From UHGV virus genome UHGV-0129366: a stretch of DNA of 44,625 nt; one strand, 5' to 3'. A program made the translations under genes and the position numbers. The DNA comes from a virus. Shown here piece by piece: positions 39,335 through 44,625 of this stretch (position 1 is its first letter; each line of letters starts with the position of its first letter). The notes below the pieces were generated by a model, which saw only the letters and a list, made by a program, of their open reading frames with translations, ran no database searches and had not been told where the DNA came from.

Positions 39335-39871
39335 TCAAACAACCCACCAGTTTGCCTGATTGGATACCAGCCTTGCAGTTTTTATGGAATTAATTATGCC
39401 ATGCTCAAGAGCCTTGTTAGCATCCAAAATGGTCGAGTCTGCTATCAGGGATGCCCACCTAATATGGGTTCCGATGTCGATATTGAACGTCTCAACGAAG
39501 CGATCAAGATCGTTATCGAGGCATTTCCCGTACTCTCTCAATCTGGCATGGTCGGCGGCTGGGGAGGCAAAGCACCATAATAGAGGATGTAACAGGAATC
39601 TTGATAATGGGTTTGCGAAACGTTCTGAGCCAGCCAGGAAAACGATATTAGCTATGGATTCAACATTGCTTATGTTGTGAGTTCTAACGGTAACAGGGAG
39701 TGACTTAAGAAAGTTATACGCAGTAAAGCCAGCGGCAGTTTCCCCTCCCTGACTTGATATATGGATATTTAATTCAGTTGCGCCTTGAGATAATGCGGTG
39801 AGACAGTGGTTCTGAAGTTGCCCAACAGTGGCAGTGTTAACGGGGCATAAGAAATGAATTGTGTGCAGCAT
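39335..39871 (-). CDS. ClpP/crotonase-fold serine protease-like protein, translationally coupled to mnt
   Basis: 178 aa; HISSQGGETAAGFTAYNFL parallels the ClpP YINSPGG...AG block; Ser (VESIAN), His (LLHPLL) and Asp candidates in ClpP order; start ATG overlaps the mnt stop. Confidence 0.5.
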   Translation of the reverse strand: MLHTIHFLCPVNTATVGQLQNHCLTALSQGATELNIHISSQGGETAAGFTAYNFLKSLPVTVRTHNISNVESIANIVFLAGSERFANPLSRFLLHPLLWCFASPAADHARLREYGKCLDNDLDRFVETFNIDIGTHIRWASLIADSTILDANKALEHGIINSIKTARLVSNQANWWVV

Positions 39872-40125
39872 TATTTATCATCCTTGCCATAAATCTTTTT
39901 AAGTGTCTCAAACACAACGGCCTTGAACTGCTCTGCTTGCTGATCAGCCAAGCGTTCAGCTTCGTCTCGATAGCCTGCAATCGGTGATGGCTTTGAGAGA
40001 GCATCCTGAACGATTTGTAATAACTCAGAGTTCATTGACCTTCCGTTAGCCTCTGCTCTTAATTTCAATTTTTCTCTTACTTCCAAAGGCATACGGAAGT
40101 TAAAGTGCGGATCGTTTCTAGCCAT
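39871..40125 (-). CDS. mnt: Mnt repressor (ribbon-helix-helix)
   Basis: 84 aa MARNDPHFNFRMPLEVREKLKLRAEANGRSMNSELLQIVQDALS... closely resembles P22 Mnt. Confidence 0.9.
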   Translation of the reverse strand: MARNDPHFNFRMPLEVREKLKLRAEANGRSMNSELLQIVQDALSKPSPIAGYRDEAERLADQQAEQFKAVVFETLKKIYGKDDK

Positions 40126-40147: not shown

Positions 40148-40200
40148 TTGACATGATAGAAGCACTCTACTATATTCTCAATAGGTCCACAGTGGACCTA
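40148..40200. promoter_or_regulatory. immI control region: Pant with Oarc and Omnt operators
   Basis: -35 ttgaca 40148-40153, -10 tatatt 40171-40176; Oarc atgatagaagcactctactat 40153-40173; Omnt palindrome taggtccacagtggaccta 40182-40200. Confidence 0.8.
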
Positions 40201-40215
40201 TATTGTGAGGTAAAT

Positions 40216-40374
40216 ATGAAAGGAATGAGCAAAATGCCGCAGTTCAATTTGCGGTGGCCTAAAGAAGTATTGGATTTGGTGCGTAAGGTGGCGGAAGAGA
40301 ACGGGCGATCTGTTAACTCTGAGATTTACAAGCGAGTGTTGGACAGCCTGAAGAGAGAGGGGATAACGGTATGA
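40216..40374 (+). CDS. arc: Arc repressor
   Basis: MKGMSKMPQFNLRWPKEVLDLVRKVAEENGRSVNSEIYKRVLDSLKREG matches P22 Arc; GTGAGG SD. Confidence 0.92.
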   Translation: MKGMSKMPQFNLRWPKEVLDLVRKVAEENGRSVNSEIYKRVLDSLKREGITV

Positions 40375-40592
40375 GGTTTATTGAGGTTGATGAGATTGGC
40401 TATGAGAATGCACTTGGTAGAGGTAAATCTTTAGTTAACATTGATGGCATTGAATCGATAAGGAGTGGTGAATTTACGGAGATCAGAATGATGTCAGGCG
40501 GAATCATTCCTTGCCGTGATTCAGTAGAGTCAATCAAATCAAAAATGAGTGGTCAGTGGCTTTATAGCTACAGTGACTTACAAAAACAGTGA
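40371..40592 (+). CDS. Hypothetical 73-aa protein inserted between arc and ant
   Basis: ATGA-coupled to the arc stop; no family recognised. Confidence 0.45.
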   Translation: MRFIEVDEIGYENALGRGKSLVNIDGIESIRSGEFTEIRMMSGGIIPCRDSVESIKSKMSGQWLYSYSDLQKQ

Positions 40593-40655
40593 AGCCCCAA
40601 CTGCGGGAACAGTCAGGGCTTCGGTATCGTAAAACCACGCATAGGAATTAACGAC

Positions 40656-41579
40656 ATGACGAGTGTAGCAATTGCAGAACATACAATCAACGTTCCATTC
40701 CACGGAACAAATCTCTTTTTGGTCAGCATTAACAATGAACCTTACGTTCCTATGAAACCCGTTGTAGAAGGCATGGGTATGGTTTGGGCTGCTCAATTTG
40801 TTAAATTAAAACAGAGATTTGTCAAAGGTATTTCGGAAATCGAAATACCTTCTGCTGGCGGTAAACAGTTAATGATATGCCTTGCCTTTCGTAAGTTTGC
40901 GGCTTGGCTTTCAAGCATTCAGCCAAACAAAGTCCGCCCTGAAATCCGCGACAAGGTAATCCAGTATCAGGAAGAGTGTGACGATGTGCTCTACGAGTAC
41001 TGGACTAAAGGTCATGTAGTTAACCCACGCAAAGCTAAAAAGGCGTTGCCGAGTAAAATTACCACTGAACAGCAGGAAGCCATTAAACAACTCGTCATGA
41101 GTCGCGGTCAGTCTCTGCCAAAAGAAAAACAGGCGAAGGCAATGATTACCATGTGGTCGTCACTGAAATCTCATTTTGGGTGTTCATACAAAGAAATCAG
41201 CGAGGAGCAGTTTACCGAAGCTCTGTCACTTGCAGCTCGCGTTCCGCTTGAAGGTGAGTTTATCGGCAAACAAGAGAAGAAAACCAACGAGCTTTCTGCA
41301 AAAGAAGCAAACAGCCTTGTATGGTTATGGGATTATGCCAACCGTTCACAGGCATTATTCCGCGAACTGTATCCGGCGCTAAAACAAATTCAATCGAACT
41401 ATTCCGGCAGATGCTACGACTACGGTCATGAGTTCTCGTATGTTATCGGAATGGCGAGAGACGTTTTAATCAATCACACACGAGATGTTGATATTAATGA
41501 GCCAGACGGACCAACGAATCTTTCCGCATGGATGAGACTTAAGAATAAAGAATTACCTCCTTCAGTACATAACTACTGA
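40656..41579 (+). CDS. ant: Antirepressor-like protein
   Basis: 307 aa downstream of arc in the Pant operon; not similar to P22 Ant as recalled; C-terminal 100 aa shared with the Roi-like protein at 17869-18546. Confidence 0.6.
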
Positions 41580-41621
41580 CAGATAACCAACGCAACGACC
41601 CAGCTTCGGCTGGGTTTTTTT
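41265..41621 (+). repeat. Copy 2 of the dispersed direct repeat
   Basis: See copy 1. Confidence 0.6.
41599..41621 (+). terminator. Rho-independent terminator after ant
   Basis: cccagc-ttcg-gctggg followed by TTTTTTT; duplicate of the terminator at 18565-18588. Confidence 0.7.
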
Positions 41622-41679: not shown

Positions 41680-44625
41680 ATGACAGATATCACCGCAAAT
41701 GTTGTGGTAAGCATGCCTTCGCAACTCTTCACTATGGCGCGTTCTTTTAAAGCAGTAGCTAATGGCAAAATTTATATCGGTAAAATTGACACTGACCCTG
41801 TAAATCCTGAAAACCAGATTCAGGCTTATGTGGAGAACGAAGACGGTTCTCACGTTCCTGTTTCGCAACCAATAATCATTAACGCTGCCGGATATCCGGT
41901 ATATAACGGACAGATTGCCAAGTTTGTAACTGTGCAAGGCCATTCCATGGCTGTATATGATGCGTATGGTTCGCAGCAGTTCTATTTTCCCAATGTGCTG
42001 AAGTATGATCCTGATCAGTTACGGCAGCAATTAGAAGACCCAGATGGAGCGAATAAATACCCAAAACTTCAGATAGCAAGATGGAGAGACAGTTATGATG
42101 TAAGAGGTTGGGGGGCTATTGGTGATGGTGTTCATGATGATACATCAGCTCTATCAGAATTACTTTCTGTTGCAACAGGTGGTGAAAAGATAGATGGGCG
42201 AGGGCTTACTTTTAAAGTATCAACTCTTCCAGATGTCAGTCGATTTAAAAATGCTCGTTTTTTATTTGAGAGAATACCGGGTCAGCCTCTTTTTTATGTT
42301 TCTGAAGATTTTATCCAGGGAGAGTTATTTAAAATTACAGATACACCGTGGTACAACGCCTGGACGCAGGATAAAACGTTTGTATATGACAATGTCATCT
42401 ATGCGCCTTTTATGGCTGGAGACCGCCATGGTGTAAATAACCTCCATGTTGCATGGGTTCGCTCAGGAGATGACGGGAAGACCTGGACAACGCCGGAATG
42501 GCTTACAGATTTACATGAAAACTATCCCACAGTTAACTATCACTGCATGAGTATGGGGGTTGTCAGAAATCGCCTTTTTGCTGTAATTGAGACGCGGACC
42601 GTGAGCGGAAATAAACTGCAGGTTGCAGAGTTGTGGGATCGCCCAATGAGTCGCAGCCTTCGCGTTTATGGTGGTATAACGAAAGCAGCAAATCAGCAAG
42701 TCGCTTATATTCGCATTACTGATCACGGATTATTTGCTGGTGATTTTGTCAACTTCTCAAACTCTGGTGTTACAGGTGTTACCGGGAATATGACGGTGAC
42801 TACTGTTATTGATAAAAATACTTTTACAGTTACGACGCAAAATACCCAGGATGTGGATCAGAATAACGAGGGTAGATACTGGAGTTTTGGTACATCATTT
42901 CACTCGTCACCATGGAGAAAAACCAGTCTTGGAACTATTCCTTCTTTTGTTGACGGAAGCACTCCTGTTACTGAGATTCACAGTTTTGCGACGATTAGCG
43001 ATAACAGTTTTGCTGTTGGCTACCATAATGGTGATATTGGTCCACGCGAGCTTGGGATACTCTATTTCTCTGATGCTTTCGGTTCTCCTGGTAGCTTTGT
43101 TCGCAGACGCATACCTGCAGAATATGAGGCGAATGCATCTGAGCCATGTGTAAAATATTATGATGGCATTCTGTATCTGACGACCAGGGGGACATTAAGT
43201 ACTCAACCCGGTAGTTCATTGCACAGAAGCTCTGATTTAGGTACATCATGGAATTCTCTTCGCTTCCCAAATAATGTTCATCACTCAAACCTTCCTTTTG
43301 CCAAAGTTGGCGATGAGCTGATTATTTTTGGCAGTGAGCGCGCATTTGGTGAGTGGGAAGGAGGAGAACCTGATAACCGTTATGCAGGAAACTATCCAAG
43401 AACATTTATGACCAGAGTTAACGTCAATGAGTGGAGTCTGGATAATGTAGAGTGGGTTAATGTTACTGATCAGATTTATCAGGGCGGAATAGTTAACTCT
43501 GCGGTTGGTGTTGGTTCAGTTTGTATCAAAGACAACTGGCTGTACTACATTTTCGGTGGGGAAGACTTTCTAAACCCATGGAGCATAGGGGATAACAACA
43601 GAAAATATCCTTATGTTCACGATGGTCACCCGGCTGATTTGTATTGTTTCAGGGTGAAAATTAAACAGGAAGAATTTGTTTCAAGGGATTTTGTCTACGG
43701 AGCCACTCCTAACAGAACGCTTCCTACTTTTATGTCGACGTCAGGCGTGAGGACGGTTCCTGTACCCGTTGATTTCACAGATGATGTTGCCGTCCAGTCA
43801 CTGACTGTCCATGCAGGTACATCAGGACAAGTTCGCGCGGAAGTCAAACTTGAGGGTAATTACGCCATTATTGCGAAGAAAGTACCGTCTGATGATGTTA
43901 CCGCTCAGAGATTAATCGTTAGCGGCGGTGAAACAACGTCTTCAGCAGATGGTGCAATGATAACGTTGCATGGTTCCAGAAGCAGTACTCCACGTCGCGC
44001 GGTATATAACGCACTCGAACATCTTTTTGAGAACGGAGATGTTAAACCTTATCTTGATAATGTAAATGCTCTTGGTGGTCCGGGAAACAGGTTCTCGATA
44101 GTTTATCTTGGCTCCAATCCTGTGGTTACCAGTGACGGAACATTAAAGACAGAGCCGGTCTCTCCTGACGAAGCATTGCTGGATGCTTGGGGTGACGTCA
44201 GGTATATCGCTTATAAATGGCTGAACGCTGTCGCTATAAAGGGGGAAGAAGGGGCGAGGATACATCATGGTGTAATCGCGCAGCAACTTCGTGATGTTCT
44301 TATTTCTCACGGACTCATGGAAGAAGAAAGCACAACATGCCGCTATGCCTTTCTTTGCTATGACGATTATCCCGCAGTATATGATGACGTCATTACTGGC
44401 CAAAGGGAAATGCCGCTGACTGATAATGACGGGAGCATCATTGTTGATGAGGATGATAATCCAGTGATGGTAATAGAAGACATCATTGAGCGCGTTGAAA
44501 TAACGCCAGCAGGATCTAGATGGGGGGTCAGACCTGATCTCTTATTCTATATCGAGGCGGCATGGCAGCGCAGAGAAATGGATAAGATAAAAGCTAGGTT
44601 AGACTTAATAGAAGGGAAGCACTAA
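41680..44625 (+). CDS. Tailspike: P22-type head-binding domain fused to an endosialidase-like beta-propeller and a C-terminal self-cleaving chaperone domain
   Basis: 981 aa; N-terminal 110 aa [48 protein letters not shown]... as in P22 gp9; Asp-box motifs SGDDGKTW and SSDLGTSW; C-terminal region [11 protein letters not shown]... typical of intramolecular chaperone domains. Confidence 0.8.

Follow-up and report, generated by a model that had tools for sequence, protein, structure and literature searches.

ORF73, a probable small gene between arc and sar in the immI region of a P22-like phage, and the exchange of genes at its position

In phage P22, the immI region carries mnt, the promoter pair Pant-Pmnt, arc, the antisense RNA gene sar, and ant in that order. 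Pant becomes active immediately upon infection, after which Arc represses it, and Mnt holds Pant off in lysogens (PMC2629481, PMC12111858; Susskind and colleagues). Transcripts of the late operon also cross the immI region, and translation of ant is blocked by sar (PMC2629481, PMC12111858). Here we describe the corresponding region of UHGV virus genome UHGV-0129366, a viral DNA of 44,625 nucleotides (nt) referred to below as the window, in which an additional open reading frame (ORF) of 73 codons, ORF73, lies between arc and ant. The sequence around this ORF represents the immI ("ant moron") region of a P22-like Lederbergvirus, and the closest named relatives for the immI stretch are CUS-3, UPF_BP1, epsilon34, Emek, and P22.

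Gene order and orientation in the window are the same as in P22 immI, the Pant/O-arc sequence is identical, and the sar terminator is nearly identical. In both regions, moreover, the sar RNA is antisense to the leader of ant, and ant is followed by a terminator and then by the tailspike gene. By contrast, only 4 nt separate the arc stop codon from the following hairpin in P22, whereas a 222-nt ORF fills this gap in the window. The C-terminus of Arc reads ...DSLKREGITV in the window and ...FKKEGRIGA in P22, and, unlike P22, the window carries an ant allele of the Stx-phage / CUS-3 type; the nucleotide identity of this allele to Stx-phage ant was 94%. An earlier reading of the sequence (the original prediction) had described an ORF of 73 amino acids (aa) coupled to arc through ATGA, then a hairpin, and then ant. 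This anatomy was read correctly, and the ORF, the overlap, and the order were all found. The features that bear on it are as follows.

40216-40374, + strand: arc, 52 aa (Pfam Arc, E = 2.6e-26; aligned with P22 arc)
40357-40362, + strand: GAGGGG, Shine-Dalgarno-like motif for ORF73, 8 nt 5' of its ATG and within arc (read from the sequence)
40371-40592, + strand: ORF73, small acidic protein with a predicted FlbD-like / half-LytTR fold (PHROG 11805)
40588-40654, - strand: sar antisense RNA gene (Rfam RF00262; position as for the annotated sar of P22-pbi)
40591-40622, - strand: sar terminator stem-loop, identical to the hairpin of the original prediction and forming the right junction of the slot (14-bp stem, 4-nt loop, U-run)
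40643-40646, + strand: Shine-Dalgarno sequence of ant, AGGA, located 9 nt 5' of the ATG and within the sar match (sequence and extent of the sar match)
40656-41579, + strand: ant antirepressor, 307 aa (Pfam P22_AR_N, E = 4.8e-40; P22_AR_C, E = 5.8e-30)
40662-40690, - strand: candidate Psar, TTGATT-17-TACACT, inside the 5' end of ant (by inspection; the place of the annotated P22 Psar)

The immI region of phage P1 (c4 antisense RNA / icd / ant1-ant2) is a second described system with a small ORF of 73 codons upstream of ant and beside the target of an antisense RNA. However, C4 targets icd itself, which overlaps ant1, whereas ORF73 overlaps arc and lies 63 nt from ant, and sar touches only its stop codon. 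Homology of ORF73 to Icd was considered, as both have 73 codons and belong to immI operons, and was rejected because BLASTP gave no alignment with E up to 100. The equal length is a coincidence.

Taken as a whole, the results described below make it reasonably likely that the hairpin is the sar terminator and that ORF73 is a coding accessory cassette, which would be expressed with arc, would escape control by sar, and would act by binding a protein during lytic growth. The parts of this reading differ in strength and are graded where they are discussed.

The hairpin upstream of ant

The arms of the hairpin are gaagccc (40591-40597) and gggcttc (40616-40622). On the + strand, the hairpin consists of a 7-bp outer stem, a 2x2 mismatch, and four further pairs, and no U-run is present. 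On the - strand, the C.A mismatches of the + strand become G.U pairs, so that an unbroken stem of 14 bp closes a 4-nt loop; ACUGUUUUUG comes next, and the scan flagged this structure as terminator-like. The 7-bp stem noted originally was recovered as the outer stem of the + strand, but its coordinates (about 40592-40627) were inaccurate, the actual span being 40591-40622.

The Rfam model of sar (RF00262, gathering threshold of 43 bits) aligned in full (model positions 1-68 of 68) to 40588-40654 on the - strand, with a score of 76.6 bits (E = 1.2e-15), which far exceeds what chance would give. The match ends 2 nt 5' of the ant ATG (40656) and covers the ant Shine-Dalgarno sequence, a layout identical to that of the P22-pbi annotation. 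The RNA is complementary to the ORF73 stop codon, the intercistronic region, and the ant Shine-Dalgarno sequence. In the alignment with P22-pbi, GAAGCCCCAACTGCGGGAACAGTCAGGGCTTCGG and its P22 counterpart, which is annotated as t-sar and marks the 3' end of sar RNA, differ at two bases. The hairpin sequence is almost invariant in P22, Emek, 611R6, and a divergent metagenomic locus. Furthermore, the sar model scored above threshold directly 3' of ORF73 in all 24 loci carrying a member of the ORF73 family. These loci comprise named phages, Escherichia coli prophages, IMG/VR contigs, and one metagenomic contig, and include both E. coli and Salmonella phages.

All 14 terminator pairs were retained in 20 sar alleles, which were chosen with a search pattern fixing most of the stem bases, and the near-invariance of the terminator is partly due to this pattern. 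One-sided changes among the alleles (G.U to A-U and U-A to U.G) maintain pairing on the - strand only. No covariation was obtained for stem-loop I of sar by RNAalifold analysis of the 20 alleles, in which MAFFT could not align this stem-loop. The candidate Psar is located 7-8 nt upstream of the modelled 5' end of sar and matches the consensus at 8 of 12 positions by our count; it was not called by the promoter scan, which had a cut-off of 9 of 12.

In ORF73-type junctions (40583-40592 in the window and the same position in all loci), the terminator is followed by ACUGUUUUUG, which provides five U, versus AACUUUAC in P22. This five-U run suggests that the final cassette codons (...KQ*) also serve as an improved U-tract for the termination of sar.

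These results indicate that the hairpin is almost certainly the Rho-independent terminator of the known antisense RNA sar (68-nt class). As sar was already known, the hairpin adds nothing new. The region had been proposed as a possibly new regulatory RNA; it is instead the known sar gene, with a full-length match to RF00262 and the same position relative to ant as in P22.

ORF73 and its predicted protein

ORF73 runs from the ATG at 40371 to the TGA at 40590-40592. Its ATG (40371-40373) and the arc stop codon (40372-40374) overlap in ATGA (40371-40374), and its TGA overlaps the first two bases of the hairpin. Judged from the sequence, this geometry is set up for translational coupling to arc. 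None of the 24 loci had a disrupted ORF73; in each, the gene overlaps arc through ATGA or GTGA and stops at the hairpin-edge TGA. The arc-ORF73 junction ...GAGAGAGGGGATAACGGTATGA was kept in 23 of these, and the remaining, divergent locus (L004) has ...GAGGGGGTGGCGGTGTGA. This locus encodes the sole divergent homologue (P0008, 84 aa, 65% identical), found in the same place with a different arc allele. Relative to ORF73, P0008 carries an in-frame insertion of 33 nt (11 codons). Between ORF73 of the window and P0008, the nonsynonymous divergence (dN) was 0.25 and the synonymous divergence (dS) was 1.21, corresponding to a dN/dS of ~0.21.

ORF73 matched the profile of PHROG 11805, a family with no known function, over its full length (E = 2.8e-53; residues 1-73 on positions 1-73 of 73). 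Coding sequences for this protein are annotated in GenBank as "hypothetical protein" in Salmonella phage Emek (orf73, 100% aa identity), Escherichia phage 611R6 (96%), and RefSeq E. coli prophages. The GC content of ORF73 is 38.7%, compared with 47.7% for the window. Damaged copies (P0002, P0006, and P0007) were also observed: one form of 45 aa has lost an internal segment in frame, another is truncated to 48 aa, and a third, of 90 aa, has a C-terminal frameshift through the sar hairpin. From the reading frames and their conservation, ORF73 is very probably a genuine translated gene.

The family is narrow. A word-index search gave 7 close matches, and an exhaustive phmmer search of 1.84 billion 50%-cluster representatives gave two real matches and one spurious repeat protein. 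No homologue was found in the GTDB species-representative genomes. In IMG/VR, 16 loci were found, all with 90-100% identity, and 50,697 phage records contained the gene in two distinct phages (3 records). Among 5426 complete E. coli genomes, 51 carried ORF73, always as a single chromosomal copy, and a query of the ORF together with sar matched 309 genomes. The only match in a PDB sequence search was to FAIM1 and was insignificant, NCBIfam gave no match, and the PADLOC defence profiles matched neither ORF73 nor P0008. In the literature searched, neither the ORF73 protein accessions nor the PHROG identifier was mentioned.

The predicted protein has an isoelectric point (pI) of 5.0 and a net charge of -2.5, and its sequence has no signal peptide or transmembrane segment. 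An AlphaFold2 model based on a 7-sequence alignment (predicted local distance difference test score, 83; predicted template modelling score, 0.70) contains five beta-strands, a helix at residues 52-60, and a short C-terminal helix. An aromatic C-terminal tail, MSGQW.Y.Y.DL, is the most conserved stretch outside the core and was modelled with lower confidence. In a Foldseek search of viral models (BFVD), dozens of phage proteins of 60-80 aa were retrieved with a probability of 1.00 and template modelling (TM) scores of up to 0.81. Several of these neighbours, with TM scores of 0.6-0.8 and E values of 1e-3 or worse, carry the Pfam-derived label "Flagellar and swarming motility protein".

Pfam FlbD (PF06289) was the only family matched by all 7 members of the ORF73 family; the matches were weak, with a best E value of 0.007, and ORF73 itself did not reach the gathering threshold (14.6 bits versus 24.7; E = 0.025). 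In an hhalign comparison with 41 FlbD proteins, residues 20-59 of ORF73 aligned with FlbD residues 12-51 with a probability of only 9.7%. Comparable in size and likewise acidic, ORF73 shares with the FlbD / SwrD family and the phage proteins annotated with FlbD (phrog_8458) a predicted core of beta-strands and a subsequent helix, and the hhalign register is consistent with this likeness, but the score is below the Pfam threshold. A PDB fold search returned no solved FlbD structure among its matches, and a tblastn search of phages with the FlbD consensus, made for the context of phage FlbD-like genes, gave one irrelevant match. A flagellar-operon context was considered for ORF73 and rejected, as its neighbours are arc and ant of a phage immunity operon. 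The BFVD neighbours include proteins of phages named for Mycobacterium, Enterococcus, and Gordonia hosts, which are non-motile, suggesting that the phage fold is not tied to flagella. SwrD raises flagellar motor power (Hall et al. 2018, as cited in PMC9195833), and this role cannot be transferred to ORF73.

The best matches among solved structures were RemA (PDB 7BM2/7BME) and the LytTR DNA-binding domain (AgrA, 3BS1). RemA, a half-LytTR module, assembles into octamers that wrap DNA by means of R50, R51, and R53 (PMC8481266). In a weak pairwise alignment, in which residue equivalence is approximate, this arginine cluster had no counterpart in ORF73, the aligned stretch being RSGEF, and the inserted helix of RemA was missing; ORF73 further differs from RemA in being acidic. 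These results suggest that the predicted fold belongs to the FlbD-like / half-LytTR (RemA-like) class, but they do not make ORF73 an established FlbD protein.

The interval between arc and sar in related loci

IMG/VR was scanned with the sar-terminator pattern, which gave at least 120 contigs, 111 of them with enough upstream sequence; each was classified by the ORF ending at the hairpin. The contigs were not dereplicated, and the following counts among the 111 matches listed are rough proportions.

Slot empty as in P22, with the end of arc 0-7 nt 5' of the hairpin: about 65 contigs (about 59%)
Small ORFs of 60-74 aa with CxxC...CxxC: 24 contigs
ORF57, including two deletion remnants (phrog_17642): 10 contigs
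ORF73: 6 contigs
ORF of 89 aa with a transmembrane segment and a coiled coil (phrog_27312): 5 contigs
ORF of 80 aa: 1 contig

Thus, a cassette was carried by about 46 of the 111 sar-bearing contigs listed. One version of the CxxC ORFs passed the Pfam threshold for zf-C4_ClpX (E = 4.1e-11; 43 bits versus a threshold of 27), and others matched this family weakly. The 80-aa ORF matched Pfam FlbD with an E value of 1.7e-4, suggesting that a second, separate FlbD-like protein occupies the same slot. In phiv205-1 (L026, 2816-2989), the unrelated 57-aa ORF57 is found in exactly the same place; it is coupled through GTGA to an arc ending in DSLKREGVTV and stops at the same hairpin-edge TGA. Alternative cassettes were also observed beyond phiv205-1 and CUS-3, in L082, L071, L086, L069, and other IMG/VR loci.

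All cassettes share the same junctions and, like ORF73, are set up for translational coupling to arc. The left junction, ...CTGAAGAGAGAGGGGATAACGGTATGA, is formed by the C-terminal codons of arc (...DSLKREGITV* in the window), which also hold the Shine-Dalgarno-like motif of ORF73. The right junction is ...AAA(CAG/AGT)TGAAGCCCC, and most cassettes consequently end in K-Q or K-S. ORF73 occurred with at least five different ant leader alleles and with two arc types, which suggests that recombination has taken place on both sides of it, the invariant hairpin being one joint. A remnant of ORF57 of 12 codons was observed in "MIRLDAAKKSKQ" loci such as L052. The damaged copies of ORF73 and ORF57 suggest that the slot turns over by deletion as well as by replacement.

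The original prediction called for a comparison with CUS-3-type immI regions. A small ORF was found at this spot in CUS-3 (L147, 1301-1501); it is, however, a 67-aa CxxC cassette and not ORF73. The CUS-3 record labels the interval from mnt to ant "bsq2; boundary sequence" (L147, 1077-1558; CP000711, 6505-6986), and no coding sequence is annotated there. Presumably, arc and sar also lie within this boundary sequence. CUS-3 has been stated to lack arc (PMC2629481), and this labelling probably explains the statement.

As expected for a moron or cassette, the position is occupied by ORF73, empty (P22), or filled with unrelated genes (phiv205-1, CUS-3, and the ORF89 and ORF80 loci), with identical junctions in each case. 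A classical moron has a promoter and a terminator of its own, and the scan found no such site for ORF73. Together, these results make it probable that ORF73 is an optional accessory cassette rather than a core regulator, and they identify it as cargo of the hypervariable ant moron. In the literature searched, no genes were described between arc and sar. The cassette slot between arc and sar is a new observation and the most useful outcome of this analysis.

Expression, neighbouring features, and possible roles

The remaining features of the region, including the promoters on which the expression of ORF73 would depend, are as follows.

39335-39871, - strand: ClpP-like ORF, 178 aa (Pfam CLP_protease, E = 2.2e-11)
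39871-40125, - strand: mnt repressor gene, 84 aa, divergent from arc (Pfam Arc, E = 3.4e-27, and Repressor_Mnt, E = 3.8e-12; position as for P22 mnt)
40148-40176, + strand: Pant-like promoter, TTGACA-17-TATATT, with the Arc operator sequence (11/12 consensus; identical to the P22 Pant/O-arc stretch)
40181-40153, - strand: Pmnt-like promoter, TTGAGA-17-TATCAT (promoter scan), face-to-face with Pant, the pair spanning 40148-40181
41597-41616, + strand: intrinsic terminator after ant, an 8-bp GC-rich stem and then TTTTTAT, annotated in the same place in P22 and Emek
41680-44625, + strand: tailspike gene, 2946 nt, with its stop codon at the last base of the window

The length of the tailspike ORF (2946 nt) equals that of the CUS-3 endosialidase gene siaK1, and Asp-box-like motifs are visible in its translation, which suggests a K1-capsule-specific endosialidase. 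The ATG of the ClpP-like ORF overlaps the mnt stop codon (TAATG), so this ORF would be co-transcribed with mnt and thus expressed in the lysogen. Copies with 98.9% identity were found in six Escherichia phages, including phiv205-1 and EC.P3. Some records label it "head maturation protease", which is at odds with its location in the ant moron and away from the head-gene cluster.

By analogy with P22, ORF73 would be transcribed together with arc and ant from Pant, with no promoter of its own, and the ATGA overlap and the Shine-Dalgarno-like motif inside arc would couple its translation to that of arc. ORF73 would then be made whenever Arc is made and be absent from an uninduced lysogen. As in P22, sar would be transcribed leftwards from a promoter in the 5' end of ant, pair with the ribosome-binding region of ant, and end at the hairpin. 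Since sar covers only the stop codon of ORF73, it should not silence ORF73 in the way that ant is silenced. Small size, acidity, low GC content, patchy distribution, and replaceability, together with this inferred timing, point to an optional accessory protein of the lytic phase. We tentatively propose, as one possibility, that ORF73 binds another protein in lytic growth, host takeover, or counter-defence.

Four points weigh against the reading of ORF73 as a lytic accessory cassette. Its expression pattern is taken over from the P22 literature; the proposed protein-binding or counter-defence role is a hypothesis drawn only from size, charge, variability of the slot, and inferred timing; the census of the slot is not dereplicated and gives lower bounds only; and all cassettes end at the same hairpin-edge TGA, which could mean that termination at this site matters in cis.

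The last point leads to a different explanation, in which the act of translating ORF73 matters and not its product. The terminating ribosome would open the mRNA hairpin and tune sar pairing or ant translation, in the manner of P1 icd. Every cassette, and P22 arc itself, ends 0-7 nt from the hairpin, and the 73-codon icd, upstream of ant1 and under the antisense C4 RNA, is annotated as required for ant expression. However, the shared stop is explicable as a recombination joint in the conserved hairpin, and the dN/dS of about 0.21 and the conserved C-terminal motif indicate purifying selection on the amino acids of ORF73. In addition, unlike ant1, ant has its own Shine-Dalgarno sequence and starts 63 nt downstream without overlap, and ORF73 has no sequence similarity to Icd. 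We therefore regard this explanation as unlikely.

We give the same low weight to ORF73 as a new regulator of immI, that is, a RemA/LytTR-like DNA-binding protein, possibly a ring oligomer, which would act with Arc and Mnt on Pant, Pmnt, or another phage promoter. Its best PDB matches fit such a role, but the protein is acidic (pI 5.0), and, in the weak pairwise alignment, neither R50/R51/R53 nor the inserted helix of RemA has a counterpart. ORF73 is also dispensable, the slot being empty in P22 and most sar-bearing loci and filled with unrelated genes elsewhere, and it did not co-vary with ant, arc, or mnt alleles. The suggestion of a "new immI component" holds in that ORF73 is an extra gene in the Pant operon. 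A regulatory component is not favoured, given the empty slot in P22 and in ~59% of the sampled sar-bearing viral contigs, the at least four other, unrelated families of small genes that fill it elsewhere, and the combination of ORF73 with at least five ant leader alleles.

A prophage-encoded defence or superinfection-exclusion gene, comparable to sieA elsewhere in the ant moron, is slightly less probable still. In P22-like phages, exclusion genes and variable cargo are known to reside in the ant moron (PMC2629481), and one of the alternative cassettes encodes a small membrane protein. ORF73, by contrast, has no promoter of its own and lies in the Pant operon, which is kept off in P22 lysogens through Mnt, and should therefore not be expressed from the prophage; the protein also lacks a PADLOC match, a signal peptide, and a transmembrane segment. 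Finally, a decaying or spurious ORF without function would fit the very narrow family (two real matches among 1.84 billion representatives and none in GTDB species representatives) and the damaged copies, but is highly improbable given the ORF intact in 24/24 loci of E. coli and Salmonella phages, a dN/dS of about 0.21 at a dS of about 1.2 with an in-frame indel, and a confidently predicted fold that matches a recurrent class of small phage proteins.

For ORF73 as a lytic accessory cassette, a likeness is offered by acr-aca operons. As in these operons, a strong early promoter is shut off by a small autorepressor of the same operon (Arc), and unrelated small, often acidic ORFs replace each other beside the repressor gene between related phages. 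Aca proteins are mainly helix-turn-helix proteins, whereas Arc belongs to the ribbon-helix-helix class (Pfam Arc); the operon here begins with the repressor gene, and its known cargo is an antirepressor. An anti-defence activity of the slot cassettes is hypothetical only. It is conceivable, if doubtful, that the slot is a dedicated site for counter-defence or host takeover that is run like an acr-aca operon, with a burst from Pant directly upon injection in which the slot occupant is made, shut-off by Arc, and occupants exempt from sar. If this were true, the products of ORF73 and of the second FlbD-like cassette would represent new inhibitors with an FlbD fold, directed at a protein of the host or of a rival prophage, and the ClpX-zinc-finger-like cassettes would be decoys for ClpX.

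The immI region of P22 is among the most heavily studied small phage operons, and many of its relatives have within it a precisely bounded position at which unrelated small genes are swapped. The slot provides its occupants with a ready-made and well-understood expression context, consisting of Pant, Arc, Mnt, and sar. It also corrects the record of CUS-3, in which a cassette ORF, and presumably arc and sar as well, is hidden under a boundary sequence feature. Moreover, the slot yields a short list of uncharacterised early proteins for testing in counter-defence and host takeover, namely, the FlbD-like and ClpX zinc-finger-like proteins, ORF57, and the membrane ORF.

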